Origin: a virus
Lineage: Duplodnaviria; Caudoviricetes
Virus record (IMG/VR): IMGVR_UViG_3300041973_000006
Location: 1 to 60,513 of that record
Length of the DNA: 60,513 nt
Direction: 5' to 3' (one strand)
Shown here: one piece after another, positions 2,991 through 45,873 of the stretch
How positions within the stretch are numbered: the stretch's first letter is position 1
Layout of the letters: every line of letters begins with the position of its first letter
The notes under the pieces: generated by a model
Seen by the model: the letters and a program-made list of their open reading frames with translations, nothing else
Told to the model about the DNA's origin: nothing
The model's database searches: none
Position numbers and translations under genes: made by a program

Positions 2991-4070
2991 ATGTCTAATG
3001 AAACCGGTTCTTTGCCCGGCCCTAAAAAGCGTAAGGATGCCACATTCATCCTTAACAGCTTTCAGACGCCTAATGATTACGTCGACCAGTTCATGTACCT
3101 GCTGACCGGCGACGAGTGGAAGGTCCTCTCATACACCGTACGCCGCATCTTCGGGTTTCATGAGCGGGAAGACTGTGTCAGCCTCACGCAGTATCAATTC
3201 GGCATCGCCTCTGAGGACGGCGCTCGCCTGGACTTCGGCACCGGCCTCTCCCGTCCCACGATCGTCAAGGCGCTTGCCTACCTGATTAAGGTCAACCTCA
3301 TCATCCTCGTCGCCCCTAACGACCCTCGCGTTGATGAAGGAGCCCGTTACGCGCTTCAGCTCGACGCCTCCAAGGTTGACATGGCGGAGCTGCTCAGGCG
3401 CGCCGAGGAGCGCCGTCAGATCAATCTCAACCGTACGGAGAAGGCCCGTCTGGCCTCTCCTCGAAGTGGCAAAAGACACACACACACAGACCTCTCCCGC
3501 TTATCGGACTCCGGTAAGTCCCACTTACCGGGCTCGGCCCCTACTGCGGTAAGTCCCACTTACCAGTCTCGGTCAGTCCCACTTACCAATGGCGGTAAGT
3601 CCCACTTACACACAAAAATCAGTAAGAAATCCAGGGGAAATCCAGACACACACACACCGCACCCGCCGCGCGCCCCGGAGCACCCGCCTCCACAGGGTGA
3701 TGTGTGCGTGTGTGAATCAATCGAACATGACGACTATGTTGACTTCGCCAAGTCCAAGTCGAGCTTCACGGAGCCGGAGGCGTGGGCTGCTGTCCACTGG
3801 CCTATTCGGCACAAGGAGCACCACATCTGTAAGCAGGTCCACGAGTGGAAACAGCGGCGACAGGCTGCTCTCGACGGCAAGGTCGAGGAAAAGCCGAAGC
3901 GCACGCCCTTCCATGCCGCTGCGCAGGCCGTCAACTCCGTCGCGCAGGTGCCCGGCTACGACGTGCGGGGCTTCATCGAGCAGTTGACCGATGTGGACGA
4001 GGAGACAAGAGCACGGCTCTTCGAACAGTTCTGTCCTCCGGAGCCGGCCAGCGCCGCGCGTGCGCCGTGA
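2991..4070 (+). CDS. Lambda-O-like phage replication initiator
   Basis: N-terminal FQTPNDYVD..LTGDEWKVLSYTVRRIFGF..SLTQ..TGLSRPTIVKAL winged HTH; central iteron-encoded low-complexity segment. Confidence 0.8.
   Translation: MSNETGSLPGPKKRKDATFILNSFQTPNDYVDQFMYLLTGDEWKVLSYTVRRIFGFHEREDCVSLTQYQFGIASEDGARLDFGTGLSRPTIVKALAYLIKVNLIILVAPNDPRVDEGARYALQLDASKVDMAELLRRAEERRQINLNRTEKARLASPRSGKRHTHTDLSRLSDSGKSHLPGSAPTAVSPTYQSRSVPLTNGGKSHLHTKISKKSRGNPDTHTPHPPRAPEHPPPQGDVCVCESIEHDDYVDFAKSKSSFTEPEAWAAVHWPIRHKEHHICKQVHEWKQRRQAALDGKVEEKPKRTPFHAAAQAVNSVAQVPGYDVRGFIEQLTDVDEETRARLFEQFCPPEPASAARAP
3512..3610. repeat. Four 18 bp iterons CGGTAAGTCCCACTTACC (lytic origin candidate)
   Basis: Copies at 3512, 3547, 3570 (1 mismatch) and 3593 (1 mismatch), each with internal dyad GGTAAG/CTTACC; A-rich tract follows. 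Confidence 0.85.
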
Positions 4071-4200
4071 TTTACGTTGCATTTCCTTGCCGATTTCGAG
4101 GTCGGCGGTCCAGCAGTAAACCGCTGAAGACAGTGTGGATAAGTCCAGAAACTGGGCCGGTTTTCAGGTGATGCCGGCAACGTGAATTCGGAGGTGAATC

Positions 4201-4671
4201 GTGGCGGAGACCAACTACGACATGGAGTCTGAACGGTTCAGACACGTGGACCGATTCAGGCTCCGCGCCTGGGGTGGGCGGCGCATGTGGACGCTCGAAG
4301 AGCTGGCGCCGGAGATGCTCATGATGCTCCTTTACGGCGACCTGCCGGGCTGGACGCTGATGCAGTCCACCGGCCTGGTCGGCAAGGACGGTGTGCTCGT
4401 CTTCGAGGGCGACATCGTCGAGGCGTGGTCGCAAGGCGCGTGCGCCACGTTCGAGGTCGTCTGGCGGCAGGAAGGTCACCCCTGCCTCATCCTCTGGCCT
4501 GCGTGGCAAAACGGGGATTTCTGGCACATGCACGGCTCCCGGGTTGGCGAGCGCGATGGGCGTTGGCACGACGATCTGCGCGTGCTCGGCAATGTCTTCG
4601 AGAACCCGGATCTGCGGCCGGCGCGGGCGGGGCTGACCCAAAACGTTATAGGTCCGGAGGTGAACTCTTGA
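4201..4671 (+). CDS. YopX-family phage protein
   Basis: FRLRAW..LMQSTGLVGKDGVLVFEGDIV..VLGNVFENPDL signature. Confidence 0.85.
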   Translation: MAETNYDMESERFRHVDRFRLRAWGGRRMWTLEELAPEMLMMLLYGDLPGWTLMQSTGLVGKDGVLVFEGDIVEAWSQGACATFEVVWRQEGHPCLILWPAWQNGDFWHMHGSRVGERDGRWHDDLRVLGNVFENPDLRPARAGLTQNVIGPEVNS

Positions 4672-4848
4672 GTCGCGACTTCAAGGACGCTTGCTTGATC
4701 GGGCTCGGAATGCTCGCGGCCGCGCTCTTCTTCGCGATGCTGCTTGGTGGAGCTGCCGGGCTTTCCGATATCTCGCCGCGCGTCGTGAGGCCCCCGGCTT
4801 CAGACGGAGGTAAGTAACGACCGGCCAGCGCCGGATGAAAGGTTAACC

Positions 4849-5277
4849 ATGCACACTTTTCAATTTCCAGAGCCAGTCAATGTTCAGGACGTCCGCGGCC
4901 TCGTCGCTTTCCTCTACATCCTGCTCCGTGATTATCTGCCCGCCGGTTCAGTCGAGAAGATCATGGTCGAGCACGTTGAGCCGTACCTCGATCAGGAACT
5001 CATACTCTCTAATGAGCACCTGGAGGCGTACGCCAGAGAACTGGCCGCACGTTTGGTCAGGGAGTGGAAGGCGCCTCTCTCCGTTACGGTCGAATCAATG
5101 CCTCCTGGAGCGGACCCACAAGAAGTAGAGGAAAGACTTGAAGACTCGTTAATTACAGCCGGATTGCTGAAACAGCGCAGGGCACCTATCACAGACCTTT
5201 CCCCGTACCGCGACAGGCAGCCTATCGAAGTGCAGGGCGAGCCCGTCTCCGAAACCATCATTAAAGACCGCCGATGA
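4849..5277 (+). CDS. Hypothetical protein with antitoxin-like C-terminus
   Basis: GAAAGG RBS; C-terminal ...PIEVQGEPVSETIIKDRR resembles ends of small antitoxins that precede PIN toxins. Confidence 0.5.
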   Translation: MHTFQFPEPVNVQDVRGLVAFLYILLRDYLPAGSVEKIMVEHVEPYLDQELILSNEHLEAYARELAARLVREWKAPLSVTVESMPPGADPQEVEERLEDSLITAGLLKQRRAPITDLSPYRDRQPIEVQGEPVSETIIKDRR

Positions 5278-5380
5278 AAGGAGCCAGTACTTGTCCTCCT
5301 ATCCCTCGATTCAGCCGATGCTGGCACCAATCGTCATGCTGTCCAAAGGACTCCCATCTGACGGATCCGTGAGGCCCCCT

Positions 5381-5683
5381 ATGACAAAGCGAGAGCGCCT
5401 GCGCGCCGAGGGGAAGTGCGTCAACTATGACCGTTGCGGCAACCAGCTCGGTACGGATGGCACGAGCACTGAGTGTCGCTCGTGTGCCCGGACCAGAAAT
5501 CAGGCTCAAAAGGTACGCATTGCCGCTCTCAGAAGGCGTCTCTCTCACAAAGGCTTGTGCATAGAAGGTTGTGGCGACAAGGCCGAACCTGGCCGCAAGC
5601 GATGTAAGCATCACCTCGCCGCCTTCGCAGAGGATCAGCGTCGCCGCCGTCTACGTCAGGCCCAGCGTCGCCCGCGCGCGTAG
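5381..5683 (+). CDS. Basic Cys-rich zinc-binding protein, candidate late-gene activator
   Basis: Two repeats of G-x-C..C..C..C/H with Arg-rich spacers; last gene before the late promoter element. Confidence 0.55.
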   Translation: MTKRERLRAEGKCVNYDRCGNQLGTDGTSTECRSCARTRNQAQKVRIAALRRRLSHKGLCIEGCGDKAEPGRKRCKHHLAAFAEDQRRRRLRQAQRRPRA

Positions 5684-5734
5684 TGTTGCGCGTAGTGTTG
5701 CGCCGCCAGGCGGACCCTGCGCTGCCCTCATAAT
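5675..5734 (+). promoter_or_regulatory. Putative late promoter 1 (tandem GCGTAGTGTTGC repeat plus CATAAT -10)
   Basis: 33 bp identical to 16507-16539; CATAAT starts 22 bp after its end; precedes the endolysin RBS. Confidence 0.75.
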
Positions 5735-5757
5735 CTCCTTAGTAAGGAGAGGAATCT

Positions 5758-7014
5758 ATGGCCTCAAAGTTCACCGACAGGGACAAGACGGCGGCACGCA
5801 TCATCGTCTCGATCTTCGAGACGGGAACGGCCGCGGGCAATTACTCGGAAGTGGCTGTCCTTGCCGACGGCGCCGGTATCTCCTACGGGGCGCATCAGGG
5901 CACTCACCGCTCCGGCACCTTGCTCAAGATCGTGCAGCGGTACTGTGAGCTGAAGCCTGAGGCCACCGCCGCTTTCGCGGAGTATCTCCCGAAGCTCGGC
6001 GACGATTCCGATAAATCGGTCGCTGCCCTGTCGCGGAACGCAAAGCTCAAGAGTCTGCTGCGTCAGGCCGGCAGAGACCCGTTGATGCGTCGCGCGCAGG
6101 ACGAGGTCTTCGACAGTGCCTACATGCGCAAGGCTGAGGCCGTCTGTGAAGGGTCGAACTTCGTCTTTCCCTTAACGCTCGCTGTCATCTACGACTCGCA
6201 CATCCACGGCTCCTGGGCGCGCATCCGCGACCGAGTTCCCGCCGGACTCCCCGAAAAGCAATGGATCGCGCGCTATATCGCTGAGCGGCGCGCCTGGCTG
6301 GCCGGACATAAGAACCCGCTGTTGCGGAAGACCGTCTACCGGATGGACGCCTTCCAGAAGCTCGTCGCGACCGCCAACTGGCATCTCCAGCCGCCTTTTA
6401 CCGTGCGCGGCGTCCGCGTCACCTCTGCGCTCCTCGACGGCCCTCAACCCGACGTTGCCCCTATACCTTCGGCGCCGCCGGCCGGCGGCGCCGCAAGTCT
6501 TTCCGCCGATGAGGCGTCGGACCCTCAAGCAGAGGCCGGAGGGGTGAACCCTGACACCCCTCCGGCTCTCACCACAGAGCGTTCCGTGAGACGTGTCCCG
6601 CCGCCGGAGCCTCCCACCGACCGCATCAGCCCCGCAGGGCCGGAGGTCGAGCACACGTCTCCTGTGCAGCCGCAGCAGGCAGCCGTTACGGTCGAGGCCG
6701 CACGCGCAGACACGCTTCGCAATAAGGTCAACGTCTGGGTCGCCGCCATCATCGCCACTCTCTCAGGTGTCTGGGCAGCGGCATCCGCCTTCCTCGGCGG
6801 AATGGCCGAGTACTTCAGAGCAAACCCCATGATGGCTGTCCTGGCCGCGGGTGCGCTCGTCGGCCTTGCGGTGATAGCGAAGACTATCATAGATCGGCAG
6901 ACGGCTCTTGAGTTGGAGAAGAAACGCCAGGCTCACGACATCACGCTGACCACGGCACAGCTCGCCGCCGACCCAACCAAGTCGAACGTCGAGATTGTGC
7001 GGAGTTGGAGGTGA
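5758..7014 (+). CDS. Endolysin, GH46 chitosanase-like lysozyme fold with Pro-rich linker and two C-terminal TM helices
   Basis: IVSIFETG, DGAGISYG.HQ, AQDEVFD..YM, LAVIYDSHIHG, YRMDAF motifs; hydrophobic helices near the C-terminus. Confidence 0.75.
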   Translation: MASKFTDRDKTAARIIVSIFETGTAAGNYSEVAVLADGAGISYGAHQGTHRSGTLLKIVQRYCELKPEATAAFAEYLPKLGDDSDKSVAALSRNAKLKSLLRQAGRDPLMRRAQDEVFDSAYMRKAEAVCEGSNFVFPLTLAVIYDSHIHGSWARIRDRVPAGLPEKQWIARYIAERRAWLAGHKNPLLRKTVYRMDAFQKLVATANWHLQPPFTVRGVRVTSALLDGPQPDVAPIPSAPPAGGAASLSADEASDPQAEAGGVNPDTPPALTTERSVRRVPPPEPPTDRISPAGPEVEHTSPVQPQQAAVTVEAARADTLRNKVNVWVAAIIATLSGVWAAASAFLGGMAEYFRANPMMAVLAAGALVGLAVIAKTIIDRQTALELEKKRQAHDITLTTAQLAADPTKSNVEIVRSWR

Positions 7015-7649
7015 TGATGGGAGTCAAATGCTTCTTGATCGTCCCGTCTGACATGGTCGAGCGCAGGCTACGGCGCTACACGTCCGGTGATGGTAATCCC
7101 TGCCCGCGCGTTCCCGGCCAGTACAGTTATCACGACGCGTCAGCGGCCATCGACAGAATCGAATCGTCCTTCCGAGGCCTCGACGGAGAGGTCGCCTCGT
7201 CTTCGGTTGAGGCATGGGACCGGACCGACGAGCGCTGGCCTAAAGCATGCCGCTGCAATTACGTCTTCGTGGAGGATGACGAGTGGCAATACAGCCCTGA
7301 GCGGCTATGGCGACGCGAAGACACGGGCGAGTTGCTTCTGCTGCGCGATGCGCCGCCGGGTGCGATGTACGACGCTTACTGGTACCACGCCATGCCCGAG
7401 TACTGCGGGCTCGATGGCCGGGCGCTCATTGTGAAGCTCCCAAACGGTGTGCCCTGGCACATCGACGGCTGCGCGAACAACTGCACCGACCAGGCCGACT
7501 TCCATCGCGGCGGCCACAAGTGCTGGGTTCGGCACGGCGAGCCGCCCCTTATCACCGTCGACAAGGCGGGAAAGACCTGCGGCGCCGGAGCCGGCTCTAT
7601 CCTCAGCGGCAATTACCACGGATTTCTTCGGCAGGGAGTCTTTACCTGA
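7014..7649 (+). CDS. Conserved Cys/His/Trp-rich phage protein
   Basis: C-terminal W.RHGEPPLITV..SI...YHGFL; coupled between lysin and spanin. Confidence 0.6.
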   Translation: MMGVKCFLIVPSDMVERRLRRYTSGDGNPCPRVPGQYSYHDASAAIDRIESSFRGLDGEVASSSVEAWDRTDERWPKACRCNYVFVEDDEWQYSPERLWRREDTGELLLLRDAPPGAMYDAYWYHAMPEYCGLDGRALIVKLPNGVPWHIDGCANNCTDQADFHRGGHKCWVRHGEPPLITVDKAGKTCGAGAGSILSGNYHGFLRQGVFT

Positions 7650-8140
7650 TGAACCCCTACGTCCTGAATCCCTGGCGCGCCTTCCTCGGCCTGTCGCCTG
7701 TTTGGAAGCTGGTCGCGGCCCTTTTCCTGCTCATGTGCCTGACGGGCCTCTGGGGCTGGTATCACACCGCCAGCTACAACCGCGACCGCGCCGAGTTCGA
7801 GCGCCAGCGTGAGGAGTTCCGGCTGCGTGACGCAGAGCGCGCCTCGGAGCGTGACCAACTGATCGGGCGGGCGCTCGAAGCGGAAAGACAGCTTCCGCCG
7901 CTGCTCAAGGCCAACGAGGAGCTGCGTAGCTCGCTCGCGGAGTTCGGCGCGCGGGGCCGCGCGGCAGTCGCCGAACAGGAGGAGGCGAAGAGGACTTATG
8001 AGGCTGAACTGGCTGAAATCGCCCGTACTTCTGACAACTGTGCTCTGTGCCGCAGGCTTTGCGCAGAGCGCGCAAACGACCCCAACCCCAGATACCGGTG
8101 CGCCTCGGACAAATGCGACGTCTTCTGCGCCAGCCGCTGA
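7649..8140 (+). CDS. i-spanin (Rz-like)
   Basis: N-terminal TM, long coiled coil, C-terminal Cys; position in the lysis block. Confidence 0.6.
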   Translation: MNPYVLNPWRAFLGLSPVWKLVAALFLLMCLTGLWGWYHTASYNRDRAEFERQREEFRLRDAERASERDQLIGRALEAERQLPPLLKANEELRSSLAEFGARGRAAVAEQEEAKRTYEAELAEIARTSDNCALCRRLCAERANDPNPRYRCASDKCDVFCASR

Positions 8141-8504
8141 CGACCTGCGCGCGCAGGCCGAGATGTACGCGGAAGTCAGGATGCTCCGGGCTGTCAACGC
8201 CGCGCTTGGGCGCGAGATAGAGGCCCTGAAGGGCGAGAACGCCGCGCTGAAGAAGCTCGACGAGCGCAGTGAGCAGATCATCGCGCTCGCGCAGACGGCC
8301 ATTACCGCGCGATCTGGCGCTAACCAGATAGACGACCTCCGTGTGAAGGATTGTCAGCAGCAGCTTGCGCGCGCCGACCAGATGATCGCCCGGCAGGATG
8401 CTGAGATACACAGGCTTCGCAACCCCGGATTCTTCCGCGAGATGTTCAGCCCCGACACGCTCTGGAAATTCGGCGCCGGCTTCGCCGTGGGTCGTGCACG
8501 CTAA
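7998..8504 (+). CDS. o-spanin-like exported coiled-coil protein overlapping the i-spanin
   Basis: Starts inside the Rz-like gene in another frame; signal peptide; no clear lipobox. Confidence 0.5.
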   Translation: MRLNWLKSPVLLTTVLCAAGFAQSAQTTPTPDTGAPRTNATSSAPAADDLRAQAEMYAEVRMLRAVNAALGREIEALKGENAALKKLDERSEQIIALAQTAITARSGANQIDDLRVKDCQQQLARADQMIARQDAEIHRLRNPGFFREMFSPDTLWKFGAGFAVGRAR

Positions 8505-8561
8505 TTACTTCGTAACCGGCTTTATCGCTTCGACCCTGACAGTCTGAAAGGAGTACGTGCC

Positions 8562-8921
8562 TTGAGACGAATCTTTGTAACGACCCTCGCCGTGATCAGC
8601 CTGATTGCGGCAACGGTCCCCATGAGTTACCTGTCGCCGCCGGCCGAGGCCGAGCAGGCCGCTTACGCGCAAACCTTCGACGACACCTCCATCGAACAGC
8701 CCGGCACGCCCGCCGCCAGCGACGCCTACGAGATCGACGAGCAGGCGCGCCCGCTCGCGCAGGCGGCCCGTCACGTCCCCGACGTCTTCAGTCACTTGAA
8801 CTTTTACAGGAATATGCAGCCGGACGAACGCGCGGCCCCGGACAAGGGGAACGGCAGCAACACGGCGGGCGCCTACAACTACGTTGCCGGCAAGAGGCCG
8901 GCACACCCCCTGCGCTGTTGA
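8562..8921 (+). CDS. Exported hypothetical protein
   Basis: AAAGGAG RBS; N-terminal signal/TM segment. Confidence 0.5.
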   Translation: MRRIFVTTLAVISLIAATVPMSYLSPPAEAEQAAYAQTFDDTSIEQPGTPAASDAYEIDEQARPLAQAARHVPDVFSHLNFYRNMQPDERAAPDKGNGSNTAGAYNYVAGKRPAHPLRC

Positions 8922-9072
8922 CAGTTGCCGGTCTGAATTGAAGGTTTTCGAAGTCGAAAGACTTGGGGGACGGGACCGGGTGGTGCGGCTAACACCATCC
9001 GGCCCCTAAACCGAGAGGCGCACCCGTCCAAGAAGCGCGCCCCGCGGTCTGCGGTGACACTACCATTTAGCC

Positions 9073-9336
9073 ATGAAAATAACACGCCGAGTGTGGCTCG
9101 CAACCGCCCTCGCCGCTCTGCTAGTCGAAAGGAGAAACCCCTTGAGAGAGCACCCCCAGACCAACAGCACCGAGCCCGTCGAAGAGGCCGAACCCCGGGA
9201 CGAAATCCCCGGCGCGGAGCCACCCCCGACGTATGACGAAACGTCGACGGAGGGAGTCTCCGGCGCGGAGCCTCCGCCGACCAGCCAGGAGATGCCCGAC
9301 ACGGGTCGAGGCATCGTCGTCGAAGGACCTCTGTAA
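9073..9336 (+). CDS. Acidic Pro-rich small protein with signal-like N-terminus
   Basis: MKITRRVWLATALAALLV; internal repeat GAEPPPT x2. Confidence 0.4.
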   Translation: MKITRRVWLATALAALLVERRNPLREHPQTNSTEPVEEAEPRDEIPGAEPPPTYDETSTEGVSGAEPPPTSQEMPDTGRGIVVEGPL

Positions 9337-9341
9337 AAGAG

Positions 9342-9863
9342 ATGGTCGCGCGCTCACTACCACTGGCGCATGTCAAGACTCGTGCGGTCGAGGTCGGGGC
9401 CGTGTCGCCCGAAGTACGGCTGACCTGGCTCTACGGCCGGCTCCGTTACACGGACGCCGCGCCCCGGCCGACGCGCCTGCGAGAGAGGGTTTGGCGCTGG
9501 GCGGCGCAGTTCTGGTATGGCTGGCTTCACCAGCCGCGCGTCTCGACCGACTCTCAGCCCGTGCTGCCTGACTTCCGGGGTTCTTACAGCAGCCGTGCCG
9601 AAGCCCGAAGCTACTGTCGCGACGGGAATTGTTTCGTTCTTGCCATTCAGTTCGGCGCCCCACCTCTTGGCGACGACATCACGCGCAGCCCGACCTTCTG
9701 CCGGCCCCTGCACCCCGACTACCGTAAACAGGACTTGCAGGACGCTCTCATCTACACGCAGGACCTGGAGGAGCAACTGGTCGAGGCCGCACGGGTCAAC
9801 GAGGAAATTCTGAGGGAAGCGCATAGGGTCATCGAGCAGGCGCGGCGCGATCTCAGCGCATGA
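9342..9863 (+). CDS. Hypothetical protein with C-terminal coiled coil
   Basis: Tightly packed between neighbours in the late operon. Confidence 0.5.
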   Translation: MVARSLPLAHVKTRAVEVGAVSPEVRLTWLYGRLRYTDAAPRPTRLRERVWRWAAQFWYGWLHQPRVSTDSQPVLPDFRGSYSSRAEARSYCRDGNCFVLAIQFGAPPLGDDITRSPTFCRPLHPDYRKQDLQDALIYTQDLEEQLVEAARVNEEILREAHRVIEQARRDLSA

Positions 9864-9864
9864 A

Positions 9865-10260
9865 ATGGCGGACTCTAACTCAACCGAAATCCTCACGCGC
9901 TGGGTCGTCGGCCTCGTCCTCACGTTGCTTGGCGGAGGCGGCCTACTGGGCTGGGCGAAATTTTACCGTGAGGGTAAACGGCAGGCGGCCGATATCCACC
10001 TCGCGGGTGCGCAGGCAGAGGTCCAGCTCGCCACCGCCGAGAAAACCCGGGCGGAAGGTCAGAAGCTCCTGCTCGACGGATTGCTCGCCGCGGCGCAGGC
10101 GTTAGCGAGCGACGTAGCGCGGCTGAGAGCCGACCGTGAGGCATTGCTGATTGAGAATGAGGAATTGAAGCGTCGTGCCGAGCGGGCCGAAGCCGCCGAG
10201 AAGCTGCTTGAACAGCAGAACAAAGATCTTGCAGCCAGACTGCAAGTAAAGGGGAAGTGA
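9865..10260 (+). CDS. Holin-like protein (one N-terminal TM plus coiled coil)
   Basis: WVVGLVLTLLGGGGLLGW followed by K/R and a coiled coil. Confidence 0.55.
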   Translation: MADSNSTEILTRWVVGLVLTLLGGGGLLGWAKFYREGKRQAADIHLAGAQAEVQLATAEKTRAEGQKLLLDGLLAAAQALASDVARLRADREALLIENEELKRRAERAEAAEKLLEQQNKDLAARLQVKGK

Positions 10261-10781
10261 TGGACCACGGTTTATTCGACATCCCGGCGCGGGCGGTCTG
10301 CTGGCAATACAACTGGTGGCTGCTCGTCCCCTTTATGCTTGGCAATCTCTTCACGGCCACCGCCTACTTTCACATCCCGTGGAGCCTGTTTCGGATAGTT
10401 CGCGGCCGGCCAGGTAAGTGGCTCTCAGCCGACGTAGGACTCGCCGCCGCTTTCATCGCGCTGTGCGGAGGCGGGCACTTCATCGGCGGCGCCCTGCTCG
10501 TCTTCTGGGGCCTCTACCCGTTCGCGGTGACATGGGATTTCCTGACGGGCGTCGTCTCCTGGGTGTTCGCCATCCGGCTGCGGCGCAAGCTCGCACACAT
10601 CATCACGGCCCCGGACGTGCAGGATATCGTAAAACTTCGGGATTTCTGGGAGGAGAGGCGTGCGGAACTGGCGGCGCACCCACTGACTGAGCGCCCGACG
10701 GATTTCCAGGTGCGGCACCAGATCGACCTGACTATTAACCTCCTCGACCGTGCCATGGTGCAGGCGGGCGTGACTACGTGA
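10260..10781 (+). CDS. Three-TM ethylene-receptor (ETR1)-like sensor domain, no kinase domain
   Basis: GNLFTATAYFHIPWSL / AFIALCGGGHF / LTGVVSW align with ETR1-type SD.FIA.AYFSIP / AFIVLCGATH / LTA.VS motifs. Confidence 0.75.
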   Translation: MDHGLFDIPARAVCWQYNWWLLVPFMLGNLFTATAYFHIPWSLFRIVRGRPGKWLSADVGLAAAFIALCGGGHFIGGALLVFWGLYPFAVTWDFLTGVVSWVFAIRLRRKLAHIITAPDVQDIVKLRDFWEERRAELAAHPLTERPTDFQVRHQIDLTINLLDRAMVQAGVTT

Positions 10782-10787
10782 AGCCGT

Positions 10788-11213
10788 TTGGAATACGTGG
10801 ACCTCATTCTGACGAGGGTCGTCCCCGTGCTCAGCGCGCTCGGCCTTGGGCTGGGCTGGTTCTTTGAGCGACGCAAGCGTCGGGCTGAAGCCAGGAAAGT
10901 CGAGGCGGATGCCAGTCACCGCGAAGCGGAGACGCGCAATCTCGACGTCGAGCAGGAGATCAAGCGGGACGATGCTACGGTGTCACACGTAGACAAGCTG
11001 CTCGACAAGGCCGAGCGGGTTTCAGAACGGCTGCTGGCGGTCCACGCCGAACTGATGGGATGCCGGGTTGAGGTGACAAAACGCGATCTCAGGATCATGG
11101 AGCTGGAGGCCGACGCCAACCACATGAAGGTCGCAATGCAACTGGTTCGTGACGAGAACACCGCGCAGGAAGAGATGATTGCGCAATACCGGGAAAAGTA
11201 TGGGAGCCTCTAA
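10788..11213 (+). CDS. Holin-like protein (one N-terminal TM plus coiled coil)
   Basis: VVPVLSALGLGLGWFFERRKRRAE followed by a coiled coil; same architecture as 9865..10260. Confidence 0.55.
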   Translation: MEYVDLILTRVVPVLSALGLGLGWFFERRKRRAEARKVEADASHREAETRNLDVEQEIKRDDATVSHVDKLLDKAERVSERLLAVHAELMGCRVEVTKRDLRIMELEADANHMKVAMQLVRDENTAQEEMIAQYREKYGSL

Positions 11214-11619
11214 AGCAACAGCCCCGATCGTGATCGTGGCCGACGATTACGACGACATCCGCAGAAGCCTGCGCCTGCTGCTCGAAGCGGAAGGGTTCGA
11301 GGTGCACGAGGCCCGTGACGGCAGAGAGGCTGTCGCTACGTTCACGCGGCTCCTCAGTGAAGGCGTCCACGTGGACGCTGCCATCCTCGACCACATGATG
11401 CCCCACCTGAAGGGTGACGTGGCCGCGGTCATGATGCGCGAACATGCCGAAAAAGCAGGCATCGCTCCGCCGAGGATTCTGCCGCTGACCGGCTCGAAGG
11501 ATGGCGATCTGGTGGCGAGGTGGCAGGCAGCCGGCGTCCATCAGATGTTCATCAAGCCGGGCTTCGAGGAGTTGTTGAACTGCATCAAGGGGCGACCGTT
11601 GGTCGCTGCCCGAAGGTGA
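11200..11619 (+). CDS. Stand-alone CheY-like response regulator receiver domain
   Basis: IVADD, phosphoacceptor ILDHMMP..G, LTG and FIKP all conserved. Confidence 0.9.
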   Translation: MGASKATAPIVIVADDYDDIRRSLRLLLEAEGFEVHEARDGREAVATFTRLLSEGVHVDAAILDHMMPHLKGDVAAVMMREHAEKAGIAPPRILPLTGSKDGDLVARWQAAGVHQMFIKPGFEELLNCIKGRPLVAARR

Positions 11620-11742
11620 GGGGCACCGGATGGAAGGCTGCTCCTGCACGTCGGCCGTCGTCATTACCGTCCCCGTCACGCTGGGGACGGTTTTTCTGAT
11701 TGCGGTTTTAGCCGGCCTGGGTCGCCGACGCCGGGGTAAGGA

Positions 11743-12363
11743 ATGAACCGGCCGTTTCCTCCAGAGCAGCTCCTCGACGAATTGGAGGCCGAGTTCGTGC
11801 CGGCTCCCGATGTGCTGGAGTGGGCGCTTGAGGCTTTCGTTGAGCCGGGAGGACCTTTCTATGACGAAGGGCACGAGCACCTGCTCGATGCGCAGCTGGG
11901 CTTTCTCTGGACCAGCGCGGCCAACTCCAGGCGCGGCGTCAGCGTCGCCGGCGATGCCTCGATGCCCCAGAGCGTCGCCCGGCGCCTCGGCGGATGGGAA
12001 AAGGAGATGTACCTGTGGAACCTGCGACGCTGGTTCGGTACCGACAGGCTCGACTTCCTGATCCGCCTCTCGGCCCCTATCTCGGCCGAGTACTCGGACC
12101 TATCTTTCTGTGCGCTGGTGAAGCATGAACTTTGTCACTGCGCGCAGGCCCTGAAGGACGGTCGGTTGTGGTTTAAGAAAGATGGCAGCCGCGTCTTTAC
12201 TCTGGTGGGACATGACGTCGAGCAGCACATCGCGGTTGTTCGTGACTTCGGCCCGGTCGGCCGCAACGTCAAAAGCTTCGTCGAGGCCGCGACCTCTCCC
12301 CCACGGTTCGGGGAAGCCGACGTCGAGATTGCCTGTGGTAACTGTCTCAGGCTCGCCGCATGA
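11743..12363 (+). CDS. Putative phage metallopeptidase
   Basis: ALVKHELCHC...GHDVEQH..VVRDFG, typical of the family found next to terminase genes. Confidence 0.8.
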   Translation: MNRPFPPEQLLDELEAEFVPAPDVLEWALEAFVEPGGPFYDEGHEHLLDAQLGFLWTSAANSRRGVSVAGDASMPQSVARRLGGWEKEMYLWNLRRWFGTDRLDFLIRLSAPISAEYSDLSFCALVKHELCHCAQALKDGRLWFKKDGSRVFTLVGHDVEQHIAVVRDFGPVGRNVKSFVEAATSPPRFGEADVEIACGNCLRLAA

Positions 12364-12371
12364 GTGGCGTG

Positions 12372-12389
12372 ACCTATAACGTTATAGGT
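12372..12389. promoter_or_regulatory. Perfect 18 bp palindrome ACCTATAACGTTATAGGT overlapping the terS RBS (member of a dispersed family)
   Basis: Direct reading; related copies at about nine other sites. Confidence 0.8.
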
Positions 12390-12394
12390 GCTAT

Positions 12395-12973
12395 GTGGCT
12401 GACGAGAAGACCCGGAACGGGGAACAGAAAAAGCCTCTCAGACTCACGGAGAAGCAGAAGCGCTTCGTCGTCGAGATGCTGGCCTGCCACGAGCCGCCGC
12501 TGGAGGTTGTGAAAGCTCTCAAGCTCGAATTCAAGCTGGACGTCACCCGGCAGGCAGTCGAGCGTTACGACCCAACCACCGCGGCCGGGCAGGAGTTGAG
12601 CGAGAAGCTGAAGGATTACTTCTGGGAGGTGCGTCAGAAGTGGGATGAGCAGGCCGAACAGGACCTGATCGGCAATATCAAGCACCGCCTCGGCGTCTAC
12701 CGGTCGATCCTGAGGCGTGCCGTCAACCGGGGTGATGATCGCCTCGCTCTCGAAGTGATGAAACAGACCGCTCAGGATAAGGGCGGCGCATTCACTAATC
12801 GGAGAGTGTTAGACGGTAAGGTGGAATTATCTACCGAGGAGCAGAAGCGTGAGTTGGCGGCAGCCATGCTGAAGAAGTTAGTGGCGGAGGGGAAGAGTAA
12901 AGTCGAGGCGCGGACCGAACTGATTAGGATGGGCGTAGATGAGCGGCACCTCCCAACCCTACAAGATAGTTGA
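12395..12973 (+). CDS. terS: Terminase small subunit (DUF2280-like)
   Basis: LTEKQKRFVVEMLAC..P..V...LK.EF..DVTRQAVERYDPT..QTAQDKGGAFTNRR; upstream of terL. Confidence 0.8.
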   Translation: MADEKTRNGEQKKPLRLTEKQKRFVVEMLACHEPPLEVVKALKLEFKLDVTRQAVERYDPTTAAGQELSEKLKDYFWEVRQKWDEQAEQDLIGNIKHRLGVYRSILRRAVNRGDDRLALEVMKQTAQDKGGAFTNRRVLDGKVELSTEEQKRELAAAMLKKLVAEGKSKVEARTELIRMGVDERHLPTLQDS

Positions 12974-14696
12974 GCGCGAACTCTTCGAGTACTTCGCACT
13001 CGGCGACGAAGGCTTCGCTCTGCCCGAGGACTTCAATACGCCTATTTGCGATTTGCCGCCTCTTGCCTGGGCCGAAGCTCACCGCCGGCTCGAAGGCCGC
13101 CAGTTCTCTCTCGACTATATACCCGAGCTTAACGAAGGCTACGAGCCGCTAAAGGACATCTACAACGATACACATCCCTTCATCGTCATCATGAAGCCTG
13201 CGCAGGTCGGTGTCTCGGAGCTGGCCATCTGCCGGGCTCTGCACGCGCTCGACGTCGGCGCACGCTTCTATAACACCCAGAGCGATGGTCTAAACGTCGG
13301 TTATCTCTTTCCAACGCAGGACGCGCTGCTCGACTTCACCAAAGAGCGCTTCGATGGTATCAAGGGCGAGACCGACTATCTGGGGGCGCTCTTCACGGAT
13401 GTGGACAACGCCAGGCTGAAGAAGGCCAGAAACAGCTACCTCTACCTGCGCGGGGCGTGGTCCACGAAGGCCGTGAAGTCTTTCAAGGCCGATCTCCTCA
13501 TCCTCGATGAGCGCGACGAGATGCTCTCGTCTGCCGTCGCGCTTGCCGAGAAGCGCCTGCGGCACAGTCGTATCAAGATGCAGTTTCGGCTCTCAACCCC
13601 GACGAAGCCGGGTAAGGGCATCCATGCCGATTATTTAAGGTCGGACCAGCGCGTCTGGGAGGTGAATTGCTCCGCCTGCGGTGAGTGGAACGAGCTCAAC
13701 TTCTTCCGGGACGTTAAATGCGACGGCGCCGATTACGAAGACTGGAAGCTCTGGGAGCCGGAGCGAGTCCACACGGCGGAGGTCGCCGTATGCTGTCCGT
13801 CATGCCACCACCCGCTCTGTGATGCCGACAGGTTCGGCCCCGGCCGGTGGGTGGCGCGCCAGCCGGAAGTCACCGCCATCCGCGGCTACCACGTCCCGGC
13901 ACTCTCCTTCCCGCGGGTCGACATCCGAAAGCTCTGCGTCACCGCTATCAGCGATGAGCCCCAACAGGTCCTCGAATTCTTCCGCTCGGACCTCGGCGTC
14001 CCGTACGAGCAGGAGGGGAGCAGCATCACCGAGACCATGCTCAAAAAGCTGAGCTCGGACCTACCCGGCGGCCGCCTACCCGAAGGCGTCAAGTGGCGCA
14101 AGGTCACGATGGGCGTGGACGTGGGCAAGCGCTTCCATTTCCGTATCTCAGGGACAGGTCCTGATAACAGGCGCTACGTTCTGAAGATGGGATGGGTCAG
14201 GGGCTGGGATGAACTCGACGCACTGATGGAAGAGTTCGGTGTGCGCCACTGCGTCATCGACAAGGACCCGGAGCTTTCGGCCTGTGAGGCGTGGGCGACA
14301 AAGCACAAGGGCAAGGTGACGCGCGCCCACTATCCGACCGGCGCGAACGCGTTAAAGGGTGTCCTCTTTGCCCCAGAGGCGGAGAAGATCGAAGGGCTCG
14401 TTCAGATCAACCGTACGATGGCGATGGATACCGTTTACAGCATTGTCGCGACGGGTAAAGAGGTCTGGCCGACGCAGATACACAATGATCCTGAAGTGAT
14501 TTCGCACATGACGGCGCCGACGCGCGTCATCGTCGAGAATGATGAAGGGCAGCCGCGCGCAACGTGGGTTCACACCAAGCGCGACGATTTATTTCACGCC
14601 TGCGTCTACGACCATATTGCGCTGGCCACTCTACCGAAGAAGCTGCCGGGAGTCGCTCTGGGCTTAGGTAGCGCAAGAGGATGGGGCTTCGACTGA
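12939..14696 (+). CDS. terL: Terminase large subunit (lambda GpA-like)
   Basis: MKPAQVGVSE Walker A, LILDERD Walker B, LSTPT, Zn-finger CxxC, MGVDVG nuclease motif. Confidence 0.92.
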   Translation: MSGTSQPYKIVERELFEYFALGDEGFALPEDFNTPICDLPPLAWAEAHRRLEGRQFSLDYIPELNEGYEPLKDIYNDTHPFIVIMKPAQVGVSELAICRALHALDVGARFYNTQSDGLNVGYLFPTQDALLDFTKERFDGIKGETDYLGALFTDVDNARLKKARNSYLYLRGAWSTKAVKSFKADLLILDERDEMLSSAVALAEKRLRHSRIKMQFRLSTPTKPGKGIHADYLRSDQRVWEVNCSACGEWNELNFFRDVKCDGADYEDWKLWEPERVHTAEVAVCCPSCHHPLCDADRFGPGRWVARQPEVTAIRGYHVPALSFPRVDIRKLCVTAISDEPQQVLEFFRSDLGVPYEQEGSSITETMLKKLSSDLPGGRLPEGVKWRKVTMGVDVGKRFHFRISGTGPDNRRYVLKMGWVRGWDELDALMEEFGVRHCVIDKDPELSACEAWATKHKGKVTRAHYPTGANALKGVLFAPEAEKIEGLVQINRTMAMDTVYSIVATGKEVWPTQIHNDPEVISHMTAPTRVIVENDEGQPRATWVHTKRDDLFHACVYDHIALATLPKKLPGVALGLGSARGWGFD

Positions 14697-25955: not shown

Positions 25956-26002
25956 AGCGAGCGGGAACCTTCACGACACGACGGCCAGCACTCTCAGCCT
26001 TC
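25813..26002 (-). pseudogene. tnpB: C-terminal fragment of IS200/IS605 TnpB
   Basis: KAESAGRRVVKVPARFTSQECSQCG..HRCQCGLTLHRDHNAALNI zinc-ribbon/RuvC-III signature; rest of the gene absent. Confidence 0.8.
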
Positions 26003-26224
26003 CCATACATGGCTGCGCCAGTCGGGGCCGATGATACCGTCCCGCAAGGCCGACGCAATCATTCCCCGGTGCGAGATAAAAAGAATAAAGGGTATCTTTT
26101 AACTTCTACCGAGCTTGCCAATGAATGTATCAAACTTTTGTTCAAGGCTTTAGATTATGAAAGCCGGAGAAGGAAATAAGCTGCTTTCGGGTAGGAAGAT
26201 GTCTGCTTTTAAACCATATATTCA

Positions 26225-26253
26225 TTGACACCCCTCCTCGCCTGACATATCTT
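26225..26253 (+). promoter_or_regulatory. Sigma70-type promoter of moron
   Basis: TTGACA-17 bp-TATCTT. Confidence 0.6.
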
Positions 26254-26327
26254 CTCGGCGCTTCATGTTATGGGTTCATCGGCCCCACAAATCAATCATT
26301 AGAATTAAAGTAGTGGGTATTTCGCCC

Positions 26328-27302
26328 ATGTCACAGCCTAATCCTAATTTACGGCCCTGCATGGAATGTGGACATTTGCTCAGCAAAGCTGCTGCGAAGT
26401 GTGTAAATTGTGGGGCCGGAACTCCTTTTGGAGCATACTGTGAATTGTGTGGAGCAAAAGATAAGTTCAGTAATGTAGCTTCTCGCTATCACAGTTCTTG
26501 CAAAGAAAGTATTTTAGCACCCCTGAAGAAAAATCTTATTTGTCCTGGATGTAATCAGGTCATTGGAGAGTTTAAAGACGAATACTTAGACCATTCTAAG
26601 AGAATGTGTAAACACTGTGGCTCACGTCGGGTGTTTATGTATCAAGGAATGCCTGTAGTTAAGCTTAAAAACTGTATAAATTGTGGTTTGCAGATTATTG
26701 CGCCATTTCATCAAAGCCATAATTCCGAAATGAGTCTTCATGATGTGTGTCTTCCATTCTATGAAAAGAAATATCCTGAATTAGCAAAAGAGATTCGTCT
26801 GCTGAAAATGAAAGACGAAGCCGAGGACAGGGAAAGAAATTATCTTAGTTATAAAGATAATATCGATAGAGCCATTAAAATAATGGAAGAATGGGTTGAT
26901 ATAATAGATGGTCAATCTTCTAGGAAAATTGAGTACTGGCGAGATAGAGACCGAGCATTTGTACTTTGGTGTCCCAGGTTCATTAATGGGAGCAATGCTA
27001 ATCGGGGCATTATCTTCAACTTCAGGGGAATGCATTTTGAAATCGTATTTTGGTCATCCTCAGATGCTGAGTACTTTGATAGTTACGTCGCATACGGGAG
27101 TAAGAAGATACGTACTGACAGCATTACGAAAGCACATTTCAATGTGTGGCTGTATTGGCTGCATACCGGAGAACCAGAGCCAGTACATCTCCTAAATGCA
27201 GAAGGGCGAAAAAACGAGAAAGCTGATAACGGGTGTCTTATTGTAGTAGCTTCACTTATAGGTTTGTTAGTGTTTCTTGCAATACTTGATTTGTTATTTT
27301 AA
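26328..27302 (+). CDS. AT-rich moron: multi-zinc-ribbon protein with C-terminal TM anchor
   Basis: Several CxxC pairs; terminal hydrophobic helix; visibly lower GC than flanks. Confidence 0.75.
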   Translation: MSQPNPNLRPCMECGHLLSKAAAKCVNCGAGTPFGAYCELCGAKDKFSNVASRYHSSCKESILAPLKKNLICPGCNQVIGEFKDEYLDHSKRMCKHCGSRRVFMYQGMPVVKLKNCINCGLQIIAPFHQSHNSEMSLHDVCLPFYEKKYPELAKEIRLLKMKDEAEDRERNYLSYKDNIDRAIKIMEEWVDIIDGQSSRKIEYWRDRDRAFVLWCPRFINGSNANRGIIFNFRGMHFEIVFWSSSDAEYFDSYVAYGSKKIRTDSITKAHFNVWLYWLHTGEPEPVHLLNAEGRKNEKADNGCLIVVASLIGLLVFLAILDLLF

Positions 27303-27331
27303 TAGGGCTCCTAAATCTTCCAGCAAAGCGT

Positions 27332-27371
27332 GAGCGCCCCGTTGATGCCATAGACGCATTGCGGGGCGCTC
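27332..27371. repeat. Hairpin copy 1 with loop CATAGAC
   Basis: GAGCGCCCCGTTGATGC-CATAGAC-GCATTGCGGGGCGCTC; homologous to 28041-28083. Confidence 0.75.
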
Positions 27372-27541
27372 TCGCGTAATGCTGCGCCGCGCAGATGGCG
27401 AACGCTCTAAAGCGCGCGTTGATTAAGTTCGGATTGTGCGAGTAGGTATAACGTTATACATAAGTTTCTAGTGACAACTCCCCACACCTAAGCTAACATC
27501 CGTCCCGACAACTAGCAGCCCGCCACGAAGGGGAATCAATA

Positions 27542-27766
27542 GTGAGCGCAGACCGCACGACGGAAATCCTCAACTACCTATCAGCCATCAGCCGCGAAGT
27601 GGGCGAGATGCGGCAGGAGATGAACGCGCGGCTCTCTCGTCTTGAATCCGACGTGCGCGGGATTCACACAAGGCTTGACCGGCTAGAGGCTCGCATATTG
27701 GACGGGCGCGCGGACCAGCGCGAACTGGAAGATAGGGTTTCGGCTTTAGAATCCGGCTCGCGTTGA
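27542..27766 (+). CDS. Small coiled-coil protein
   Basis: Heptad pattern; AAGGGGA RBS. Confidence 0.6.
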   Translation: MSADRTTEILNYLSAISREVGEMRQEMNARLSRLESDVRGIHTRLDRLEARILDGRADQRELEDRVSALESGSR

Positions 27767-27794
27767 CGGGCGCGTGCGCGGTAGAATCCGCCGC

Positions 27795-27977
27795 ATGGCT
27801 CTCACTACATGCCCCGAATGTCAAGCCGCTATATCCGACGAGGCGCAAGCCTGCCCAAACTGTGGAAAGCCAAACGCGACCATTGCAGGGCGAAAGCGCC
27901 GAGAGGAAACGCTAGTTGGCCTGCTCTGCCTTTGCGGATTCATCGTATTTATCTTGTATCTGTTCGGCTGGTTGTGA
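27795..27977 (+). CDS. Zinc-ribbon plus TM moron protein
   Basis: MALTTCPECQAAISDEAQACPNCG, C-terminal TM; TAGAAT 7 bp upstream (possibly leaderless). Confidence 0.7.
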   Translation: MALTTCPECQAAISDEAQACPNCGKPNATIAGRKRREETLVGLLCLCGFIVFILYLFGWL

Positions 27978-28040
27978 TGCTATAATCCGCGCCTGACAGC
28001 AGCAGCCCGAAAGCGGCTCTAATATCCTTTCTAGCGGGCC

Positions 28041-39463: not shown

Positions 39464-39557
39464 AAGGCATCAGCCAGCCCTTTTCGCGGTCCGATTTGCC
39501 ACCCCCTCCCTAAAATGAATATTGAAATACATGGGCGGGTATGCTATACACCCGCTC

Positions 39558-40361
39558 ATGCTCCCTGAAACTCTCGTCACTCCGCCCTTCTCCATCAACC
39601 CGGATCCGAGTCTGCTGCACCTGACGCCCGGCCTTGAGGCCGCACTTCATAAGACGCGCTACGTGATTGAGCGCCGGCAGGGGCTGACGGCTATCCTCGG
39701 CGATGTGGGTCTCGGAAAATCTACCGTACTCAGGTACCTCTACCAGAGCTACGCCTCGCGTGACGATGCGTCGGTCGCCTTTATCCATACTCCGACGTTC
39801 AAGTCGGAGTTCGCCTTCCTGAAGGCGATCTGCTCTGAGTTCGGCCTGCCGGTCAGGCCCTCCCAGCAGCGGCAGGAATCGGAGTTGAATGACTTTCTGA
39901 TCTCGGAATATTCCGCTAACAGGCTCGTCGTCGTCTTCGTGGACGAGGCGCAGAAGCTGCCTGGCGCGCAGCTCGAACTCGTCCGCACGCTCCTCAATTT
40001 CGAGACGGGAAAGGTGAAGCTCATCCAGATCGTGCTTGCGGCGCAATTGGAGATTCGGCAGAAGCTCGCCGACCCGTCGAAAAAGGCGATCCGCTCAAGA
40101 ATCTTCGCCCCTTCCCTGCTGGAGCCGCTCACGCTTTCCGAGACGCAGGAGATGATCGAGTACCGCTGCCGGCGGTCCGGGATCGAGAATCCGTTTTCAC
40201 CGGATGCGGTTGAAGCTGTCTACCGATTGACCGGCGGCGTGCCGCGCGAGGTGCTGAAGACCTGCGCGATCGCCGTCGAGCTAACGGAGGCGCAAGGGCT
40301 GGAGCGTGTCCCGCCAGATCTAGTGGATAGCCTGCACGCGGAGGCAGTCTATGCGGAGTGA
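39558..40361 (+). CDS. ExeA/GspA-type AAA+ ATPase
   Basis: PFSINPDP, GDVGLGKST, VFVDEAQ, LEPLT..ET, TGGVPRE; start could be 39522 or 39531. Confidence 0.9.
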   Translation: MLPETLVTPPFSINPDPSLLHLTPGLEAALHKTRYVIERRQGLTAILGDVGLGKSTVLRYLYQSYASRDDASVAFIHTPTFKSEFAFLKAICSEFGLPVRPSQQRQESELNDFLISEYSANRLVVVFVDEAQKLPGAQLELVRTLLNFETGKVKLIQIVLAAQLEIRQKLADPSKKAIRSRIFAPSLLEPLTLSETQEMIEYRCRRSGIENPFSPDAVEAVYRLTGGVPREVLKTCAIAVELTEAQGLERVPPDLVDSLHAEAVYAE

Positions 40362-44898: not shown

Positions 44899-45873
44899 TT
44901 AAATTGCGGTCGCTCCAGCCCTCTCGGTGACGTTGGCAGCCACCGGTGACACCGCGGGAGGCTGGCCCATGACGTAGCTGACGGGCTTACCGATCACGCG
45001 CGCAACCTCATCGGGCGTGGCGTAGGTCGAGCGCATCGACCTCGCCGCCGTAGATAGCTCGGTTGCGAAGCACTTCAAATCGCGCGTCACCAAAAGCTGC
45101 GTCAGCGTGGTCGCGCCCTCGATGGCGACGCGCGCACCGACGTGCAGCGCAGCCTGGCCTCGTATAGCCATCTCGGCGCAGGAGAGGTTCGAGTCGTCGA
45201 ACTCCTCTGGCCGGGGCGTCAGCAGGTCGCGGAACTGGAGGGCGGGACTGGGGAGCGCAAGGCAGGTCTGCGAATCGGGGAAGGCGCCGCGCAGGTCCTC
45301 GAAGCTGTGGGCGTTGCCTAAGAGCACGCGGCCGACGTGTCCCGTTTTGCCTGAGCCGTTCGAGCAGTCGAGATACCAGAACTGAAGTGCGGAGCCCTGG
45401 TTCGATTCGAGCACGTCGTGGAGCTTCTGACGGGCGCGCGCATTATCCACGCCGCCGACGAGCACGGTGATGTCGCAGCCTATGATGAGCGACTCGTCGA
45501 ACTCGCCGACGACGTAGGAGCAGTTGATGCCCCACGCCTGACCGTAGCGACGAGCGAGCGCCGCCGCTTTCGGCACTCCGATCTCGGCGTCGCAGAAGTT
45601 CTGGCCGGCCTCGACGTTCTTCTCCTCGACGATGTCGGGGTCGCAGAGCGTGAGGTGGACGCCCTTGTGCAGGCGGTAGATGGCGCGCATCGTCCGCCCG
45701 ATGTGCTGCGCCAGATGAGAGCCGCCGCCGCCGAGACCGACGAGGATGATTTGACAGCGCTGCCACTCGCGCGTGCGGACGGTCGCGGCGCGCAGGTATG
45801 ACGTGTCAACGGTGGTGATGACTTCCGGCTTCTGAATTTCTATGCGGCGGAAGCCCTTCTTATTTTTTGGCAT
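44899..45873 (-). CDS. ThiF/E1-like ubiquitin-activating enzyme (PRTRC-type)
   Basis: LVGLGGGGS, DPDIVEEKNV..QNF..EIGVPKA, VDNARAR, WYLDCSN, LPSP, SCAE. Confidence 0.9.
   Translation of the reverse strand: MPKNKKGFRRIEIQKPEVITTVDTSYLRAATVRTREWQRCQIILVGLGGGGSHLAQHIGRTMRAIYRLHKGVHLTLCDPDIVEEKNVEAGQNFCDAEIGVPKAAALARRYGQAWGINCSYVVGEFDESLIIGCDITVLVGGVDNARARQKLHDVLESNQGSALQFWYLDCSNGSGKTGHVGRVLLGNAHSFEDLRGAFPDSQTCLALPSPALQFRDLLTPRPEEFDDSNLSCAEMAIRGQAALHVGARVAIEGATTLTQLLVTRDLKCFATELSTAARSMRSTYATPDEVARVIGKPVSYVMGQPPAVSPVAANVTERAGATAI

Follow-up and report, generated by a model that had tools for sequence, protein, structure and literature searches.

The ethylene-binding domain ETR1_N is known as the head of sensor kinases, both in the plant receptors ETR1 and ERS1 and in the bacterial receptors SynEtr1 and AzoEtr1, where it is fused to GAF or phytochrome domains and to histidine-kinase domains. 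Here we describe an ETR1_N protein that stands alone in a phage, with non-kinase partners, in IMG/VR virus record IMGVR_UViG_3300041973_000006 (Duplodnaviria; Caudoviricetes). The record is one linear virus stretch of 60,513 bases, its completeness put at ~65% by CheckV, and is referred to throughout as the window. The one sequencing run listed for it, a DNA run labelled soil metagenome, may be where the contig came from; no RNA run was listed. The gene is the second of four closely spaced open reading frames (ORFs), all confirmed and all on the plus strand, which form a cassette at positions 9865-11619. Like ETR1, ERS1, SynEtr1 and AzoEtr1, the ORF 2 protein has the same N-terminal family, three membrane helices, a Cys before helix 1 and the Tyr/Ile-Pro/Ile/Cys/His spacing; unlike these receptors it is phage-encoded, lacks GAF, kinase and fused receiver domains, and has a 57-residue helical hairpin at its end. 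The domain family is a known one; the novelty lies in a phage form that stands alone beside non-kinase partners, and in an Asn/Asp subtype of the sensing domain.

The identification of ORF 2 as an ETR1_N protein is as safe as sequence evidence allows. The protein matches Pfam ETR1_N (PF25487) with E=4.2e-11 and 43.4 bits (cut-off 27) over profile positions 7-94 of 97, and a six-frame profile search gave an ETR1_N match of 44.5 bits. AYFHIP and AFIALCGGGH are both present in the translation, the key residues being Cys14, Asn29, Tyr36, Ile39, Pro40, Ile66, Cys69, His73, Asp93 and Thr96. An exhaustive HMMER search of 1.84 billion representatives with ORF 2 found 213 relatives at E<=1e-3. In an alignment of 148 of 151 sequences bearing the Cys/His motif, a set biased by having been gathered with ORF 2 as the query, Cys69 and His73 occur in 148/148 relatives, Tyr36 in 147, Thr96 in 146, Pro40 in 142, Ile66 in 141 and Ile39 in 138; the window protein carries the majority residue at each of these positions. 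We take Tyr36, Ile39, Pro40 and Ile66 to be Tyr32, Ile35, Pro36 and Ile62 of ETR1, while the equivalents of its copper ligands Cys65 and His69 are present as Cys69 and His73. The spacing from Asn29 to Cys69 (40) and from Cys69 to His73 (4) equals that of Asp25, Cys65 and His69 in ETR1, as numbered in the available text of PMC10266040.

An AlphaFold2 model of ORF 2 made with 40 homologues (mean predicted local distance difference test score, pLDDT, 89.3) places helices at residues 19-49, 56-82, 86-116, 120-139 and 148-168, and confidently predicts three membrane helices followed by a C-terminal two-helix hairpin. An earlier note on this DNA, made by a model from the letters alone, had proposed three transmembrane helices with ETR1-type residues, an Asn at the Asp25 position and no GAF or kinase domain. 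The first of these is borne out by the Pfam match above cut-off, the model and the alignment, the second by Asn29, and the third by a protein that terminates with its hairpin at residue 173, with no output domain fused. Sequence, profile and Foldseek searches found no solved chain of an ETR1_N domain in a copy of the Protein Data Bank, and VIA-align returned generic helical bundles only, the best (Z 9.8, root-mean-square deviation 3.1 over 102 residues) lying below the helical noise level of the tool. A word-based protein search with ORF 2 returned the ORF 2 protein alone; with P0003 as query it returned P0003 (on a JGI contig of 2,071 bases) and P0158 (15,313 bases), and with the receiver P0156 (4,905 bases), three contigs that differ in length.

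Unlike canonical ETR1, ORF 2 has Asn29 and Asp93 (codons 10344-10346 and 10536-10538) in place of the Asp25/Lys91 pair. Positions 29 and 93 covary across the alignment: where position 29 is Asp or Glu, position 93 is Lys or Arg in 62/79 sequences, and otherwise in 5/69, with a nominal Fisher p of 1e-19 that is inflated because the aligned sequences are related. Coupling of Asp25 and Lys91 has been reported for ETR1 in the accessible portion of PMC10266040, and the matching covariation establishes position 93 as the Lys91 equivalent, reached through a loop two residues shorter. Among the 148 relatives Asp/Lys is the commonest pair (54) and Asn/Asp the second commonest (24); the latter is enriched among short forms, 17 of the 24 being in proteins of <=250 amino acids (aa), and its carriers include the window protein, P0158, P0005 and a Maribacter phage protein. 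Judged from these sequences, the acidic residue seems to have shifted from helix 1 to helix 3 across the whole subfamily. Asn at the Asp25 position is described as a natural variant with lower affinity (PMC10266040, in the part available), and the Asp25Asn form of ETR1 as still functional with an affinity ~100-fold lower (PMC11971883; PMC10266040, likewise in part). Since the substitution lowers ETR1 affinity, fast, low-affinity sensing or a shifted ligand preference would be expected of ORF 2. The subtype offers a natural experiment on two residues that have been proposed to determine both the affinity for ethylene and the signal output.

The cassette, its terminator and the two context genes used below are as follows.

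9865..10260, plus strand: ORF 1, 131 aa, a single N-terminal membrane helix and a charged coiled-coil-like tail.
10260..10781, plus strand: ORF 2, the stand-alone ETR1_N protein, 173 aa from ATG 10260 (174 aa from the alternative GTG 10257).
10788..11213, plus strand: ORF 3, 141 aa, a single N-terminal membrane helix, a strongly basic stretch and a coiled-coil-like tail.
11200..11619, plus strand: ORF 4, a single-domain receiver, 139 aa from ATG 11200 (146 aa from the alternative TTG 11179).
11666..11700, plus strand: intrinsic terminator, a hairpin at 11666-11691 and then a T-rich tail.
5758..7014, plus strand: GH46-domain protein, 418 aa (context).
9342..9863, plus strand: upstream ORF without family match, 173 aa, its stop abutting the ORF 1 start (context).

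The four genes are tightly coupled, as the earlier note had claimed: ORF 1 runs with its stop into the start of ORF 2 whichever ORF 2 start is used, ORFs 2 and 3 are separated by 6 nucleotides (nt), and the last 14-35 nt of ORF 3 are shared with the receiver gene. The sequence AGGGGA sits 4 nt 5' of the ORF 2 ATG at 10260. ATG 11200, the most likely start of ORF 4, is preceded by GGGAAAAG. The terminator, with a 10-pair stem (7 G-C pairs), a 6-nt loop and a T-rich tail, lies 47 nt past the receiver stop, between the receiver gene and the metallopeptidase and terminase genes.

The intact CheY-like receiver that had been noticed two genes after ORF 2 is confirmed. ORF 4 matches Pfam Response_reg (PF00072) with 50.3 bits (cut-off 30.2) and can be aligned to solved receivers, and its pocket has the phospho-acceptor residues complete, with Asp15/Asp16, Asp64, Thr97 and Lys119 in the numbering of the 139-aa protein. 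Asp16, Asp64, Thr97 and Lys119 are invariant in a three-sequence alignment of ORF 4, P0156 (a single-domain receiver 50% identical to ORF 4) and a NarL-type regulator. The statement that the genome holds no histidine kinase is upheld for the ~65% complete record, in which neither HATPase_c nor HisKA was matched anywhere in 60,513 bases and the receiver is the only one. Complex prediction of the ETR1_N protein and ORF 3 with the receiver as partner (score 0.00, mark 0.32) gave no answer either way.

ORFs 1 and 3 share a build, with one N-terminal hydrophobic helix (approximately residues 13-31 in ORF 1 and 4-22 in ORF 3), followed by basic residues and by a helical tail that is long and charged. 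Of the features of an inner-membrane spanin (i-spanin), the helix and the coiled coil are present, and the basic stretch after the helix suggests that the tails of both proteins are cytoplasmic, which would put them on the same side as the ORF 2 hairpin and the receiver. An alternative-frame ORF with a lipoprotein-like start, of the kind expected of a spanin partner, was not seen within the ORF 1 and ORF 3 region. Paralogy of ORF 1 and ORF 3 was rejected (E=0.85). The label 'holin-like' given to both genes in the earlier note was a guess from their build and finds no support, as no family scored over threshold.

On its upstream side the cassette follows an RNase H gene, an HTH gene, an O-like replication gene, a YopX gene and the GH46 gene, and downstream of the terminator come a phage metallopeptidase, a DUF2280 protein, a gpA-type large terminase and then structural genes, giving the order replication genes, GH46, cassette, terminator, terminase. 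With the terminator and the packaging genes beyond it, the cassette closes a transcription unit that precedes packaging. Its description as part of a late operon consequently holds only in part, the terminator hairpin dividing the cassette from the packaging genes. In lambdoid phages the lysis genes occupy the slot just before the packaging genes, and by position the cassette occupies this slot, ~3 kilobases (kb) downstream of the GH46 gene.

Pfam scans covered 29 window ORFs, of which 19 were also compared with PHROGs, and no family was found above threshold for the upstream ORFs at 7005, 7998, 8562 and 9342. The GH46 protein is the only candidate wall hydrolase among the 29. It comprises a full-length N-terminal chitosanase domain of the lysozyme superfamily, which matches solved chitosanases with E=3e-16, a Pro-rich linker and two C-terminal hydrophobic helices. 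In our own reading of the alignment, Glu and Asp are kept at what we take to be the catalytic positions. The protein is a candidate for an unusual, membrane-tethered endolysin.

Short forms of ETR1_N are not peculiar to the window: proteins of <=250 aa account for 82/150 among the relatives listed. A scan of bacterial genomes gave 63 loci, and in the 59 where the gene was found it mostly encodes sensors of 320 to 1,222 aa; the clean short forms are those of loci L015 (prophage-like), L017, L019 and L026. In the last three (L017:907-4992, L019:7992-12183, L026:7917-10572) a short ETR1_N gene (132-157 aa) lies directly upstream of a gene for a membrane histidine kinase with PAS or CHASE, HisKA and HATPase_c domains; L017 and L026 then have a single receiver (146-148 aa), and L017 and L019 carry a receiver-kinase hybrid. 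Judged by gene content, each looks like a split ethylene-receptor-like two-component system, and no paper on split operons of this type was found in the open-access literature searched. These operons show that stand-alone ETR1_N proteins with separate signalling proteins are a natural arrangement. They resemble the window in placing a stand-alone ETR1_N protein in one gene string with a receiver domain, but differ in having the canonical Asp/Lys pair, an adjacent kinase, a cellular context and no flanking single-pass coiled-coil proteins.

Other phages carry the domain as well. A tblastn search of 50,697 GenBank phage records gave 8 matches, all in the Maribacter phages Molly and Colly, whose host is a marine flavobacterium. 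Their gene 65, annotated as a hypothetical protein, encodes 289 aa with an ETR1_N match of E=1.5e-16. A structure search of BFVD with ORF 2 had as its sole match a 289-aa protein (E=1.9e-3, prob 1.00), which from its length is taken to be this Molly-type protein. As in the window, gene 65 is of the Asn/Asp subtype, has a terminase gene nearby and is overlapped at its start by a preceding gene (gene 64) that encodes, judged by eye, a single-pass membrane protein with a helical tail. Unlike the window protein, it has an extra C-terminal domain and Ser in place of the helix-1 Pro, and an amidase gene follows directly downstream. The nine genes annotated in the 8.3 kb Molly locus include no receiver, and homology between ORF 1 and gene 64 was rejected (E=0.30).

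A motif scan of IMG/VR by alignment of stored proteins gave 32 pattern matches that resolved into 11 loci, 7 with short forms (122-168 aa) and 4 with full sensor kinases. At L014 the order is ETR1_N, a 100-aa membrane protein and a lysozyme-like gene, the last matching the endolysin family phrog_7 (E=5.4e-5) and, below cut-off, Pfam Phage_lysozyme. At L004 the ETR1_N gene is followed by genes for a two-helix membrane protein, a DUF5675 protein and small membrane proteins. L005, L007, L012 and the prophage-like L015 are one alphaproteobacterial lineage, with a tail protein, ETR1_N, multi-helix membrane proteins and a single-pass coiled-coil protein; family searches with the L012 neighbours gave nothing useful, and a 161-aa protein of L015 was dropped as a transglycosylase, its only match being phrog_3108, of unknown function. 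Two members of this lineage have lone PAS proteins of 157-202 aa beside the ETR1_N gene, all above Pfam cut-offs (two at L005:8108-9212, one at L015:10403-10876), their genes coming after a tail gene with Phage-tail_3 and Rcc01698_C domains. Long forms also occur on putatively viral contigs: L008:6884-8323 (also L010 and L011) and L013:6647-8353 encode ETR1_N sensors of 479-568 aa whose C-terminal parts resemble PAS and histidine-kinase domains by eye, on contigs of 49-61 kb and one of 488 kb. In the ESM Atlas the clusters nearest to ORF 2 consist of 122-138 aa ETR1_N proteins, and in two of these clusters the commonest phylum is Uroviricota; we treat this as a lead only.

No paper on a phage ETR1_N protein was found in the open-access literature searched. 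The claim that no phage system of this kind had been described agrees with that search, but such proteins sit unremarked in a cultured phage and in ESM Atlas clusters.

Taken together, these data lead us to favour, with a probability of roughly 0.4, a reading of the cassette as a kinase-less, copper-dependent membrane sensor module with lysis timing as its output. ORF 2 would hold Cu(I) on Cys69 and His73, as is inferred from the plant and bacterial receptors, and would sense ethylene or a similar small hydrophobic ligand, or else copper or redox state. Movement of helix 3 may then be relayed both to the cytoplasmic hairpin of ORF 2 and to ORFs 1 and 3 through their coiled-coil tails, while the lone receiver would tie the module to host kinases or small phosphodonors, or serve as its bound output. 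The likeliest output is control over when membrane and lysis events take place late in infection, both because the cassette lies between replication genes and terminase, downstream of the GH46 enzyme, and because other phages put the ETR1_N gene next to an endolysin gene. A kinase-less signalling module had already been suggested in the earlier note, and indirect support for it comes from the kinase-receiver operons of L017, L019 and L026 and from the lone PAS proteins of L005 and L015. The suggested link to lysis stands on position, through the Molly amidase, the lysozyme-like gene of L014 and the lysis slot of the window, whereas its holin-like component is unsupported.

A number of observations weigh against this reading. 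The equivalents of Asp25 and Lys91 are both altered, so that ethylene may not be the ligand, and a kinase could lie in the missing part of a record that is ~65% complete. The GH46 gene is 3 kb upstream of the cassette, with several ORFs without assigned family in between, and the endolysin role of its product is itself an inference. In the Pfam and PHROGs scans ORF 1 and ORF 3 matched no family above threshold (ORF 3 had sub-threshold matches only) and no spanin family. Searches of viral, metagenome and genome contigs found no relatives of the window clade with DNA context, and at the other phage ETR1_N loci no homologues of ORF 1, ORF 3 or the receiver were found, which makes the four-gene set so far unique. 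The reading is supported by the finding that single-pass membrane proteins with a helical tail are, under a strict filter, encoded by 5/50 genes within three of an ETR1_N gene versus 0/156 farther away (one-sided Fisher p=7e-4), but the five are not independent because L005, L012 and L015 are one lineage, leaving two independent cases; Molly gene 64 and the L014 neighbour resemble these proteins by eye but do not pass the filter. The bacterial short forms pair with kinases and not with lysis genes. Finally, a tree of 162 core domains, in which 80/159 inner branches are open and the long-branch join of Molly is flagged, gave no supported single phage clade and no donor.

It is also conceivable, if unlikely, that ORF 2 is itself a holin or antiholin of a new family, with ORFs 1 and 3 as accessory lysis proteins and the receiver as an unrelated neighbour; the conserved Cys and His would then serve oligomerisation or gating and not ligand sensing. 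ETR1 crosses the membrane with three helices, its N-terminus lying outside and its C-terminus inside, and has a cytoplasmic tail, and class I holins have the same build, so that the topology expected of ORF 2 by analogy with ETR1 is equally that of a holin. ORF 2 is the only small multi-helix membrane protein among window ORFs with a coding-like G+C content at third codon positions (GC3), gene 65 stands alone among the six genes examined around the Molly amidase in encoding a multi-helix membrane protein, and 23 neighbouring ORFs of other loci compared with PHROGs had no holin family match. An endolysin-type gene adjoins the ETR1_N gene directly in Molly and lies two genes off in L014, whereas in the window GH46 is 3 kb away. 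Holins, however, diverge fast, and the near-invariant Cys, His, Tyr, Ile-Pro and Thr over 148 relatives that include long sensor kinases form the pattern of a cofactor site. Similar short proteins moreover occur in bacterial kinase and receiver operons without lysis genes, and neither ORFs 1, 2 and 3 nor 40 short ETR1_N relatives matched a holin family in Pfam or PHROGs. In favour of the holin reading, the amidase is the only lysis gene named for Molly in the sections of the Molly paper available, where ethylene is not mentioned (PMC8776804).

A doubtful alternative is that the cassette has nothing to do with lysis and is a moron-like unit for host manipulation, which would act as a decoy or phosphate sink for an ethylene or copper two-component pathway of the host and, in infected cells or lysogens, alter biofilm, motility or surface properties. 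The cassette is closed by its own terminator, single-domain receivers can serve as phosphate sinks, and the phage looks temperate from an HTH_31 gene and a 586-aa TPR protein. The roles of bacterial ETR1_N receptors, which control biofilm, surface and colonisation traits according to the accessible parts of PMC11819568 and PMC6682694, also fit this explanation. Against it, no promoter-like site for the unit was found in 4000-13000, and its genes, which have the GC3 of the genome, are in tight translational packing with the ORFs upstream.

A more far-reaching proposal, which we regard as distinctly improbable, is that in several unrelated tailed phages a copper-bearing ETR1_N protein is a ligand-gated holin or antiholin in the lysis clock, opened by gas, copper or redox, to which the receiver adds in this phage a tie to the host phosphorelay. 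We give almost no credence to ORF 2 being a decaying, functionless fragment of a host sensor-kinase gene: long sensor forms are most of the genomic matches, and bacterial loci L067 and L068 resemble broken long forms, but the same-length relatives P0003 and P0158 (58-61% identity) retain Cys69, His73, Asp93, Thr96 and the C-terminal hairpin, short forms abound among the relatives listed, the GC3 of ORF 2 (0.80) is in line with the phage, and the predicted fold stays highly confident up to the last residues of the protein. The remaining weight goes to something outside the readings considered.

Phages are already known to carry sensors of small diffusible molecules. VqmA of phage VP882 and phage LuxR-type receptors are reportedly soluble and DNA-binding, with ligand and output shown; like them the sensor of the window could time a life-cycle decision, but unlike them it is membrane-bound, and its ligand and output are putative. 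Sensory input is also tied to lysis-timing membrane proteins in the LytSR-controlled CidAB/LrgAB holin-like systems, where LytS is a kinase, and in the T4 RI/T antiholin-holin pair, where RI senses superinfection through a periplasmic domain; the window cassette has no sequence relation to either. If ORF 2 binds copper and a small ligand, it would provide a compact system of ~170 residues in which to study signalling by the domain, and phages would be able to read a gaseous or metal cue. If lysis is ligand-gated, lysis control would gain a new class, and the domain its first known task outside receptors of the kinase or cyclase type. Since Maribacter phage Molly has been cultured, the idea is open to bench tests.

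Elsewhere in the window, the 586-aa TPR protein (ORF 55314-57074) has, besides its TPR repeats, weak sub-threshold matches to HTH_8 and Peptidase_S24, and may represent a large repressor that cleaves itself and contains a sensor part. Within a structural region that is otherwise 0.6-0.67 GC, the GC content falls to 0.47 at 26000-28000; ORF 26265-27302 (345 aa), with a GC3 of 0.35 and a weak double zinc ribbon as its sole family match, was probably acquired recently. The right arm carries a ThiF-family protein and an AAA_22 ATPase at 44899-45873 (minus strand) and 39522-40361.

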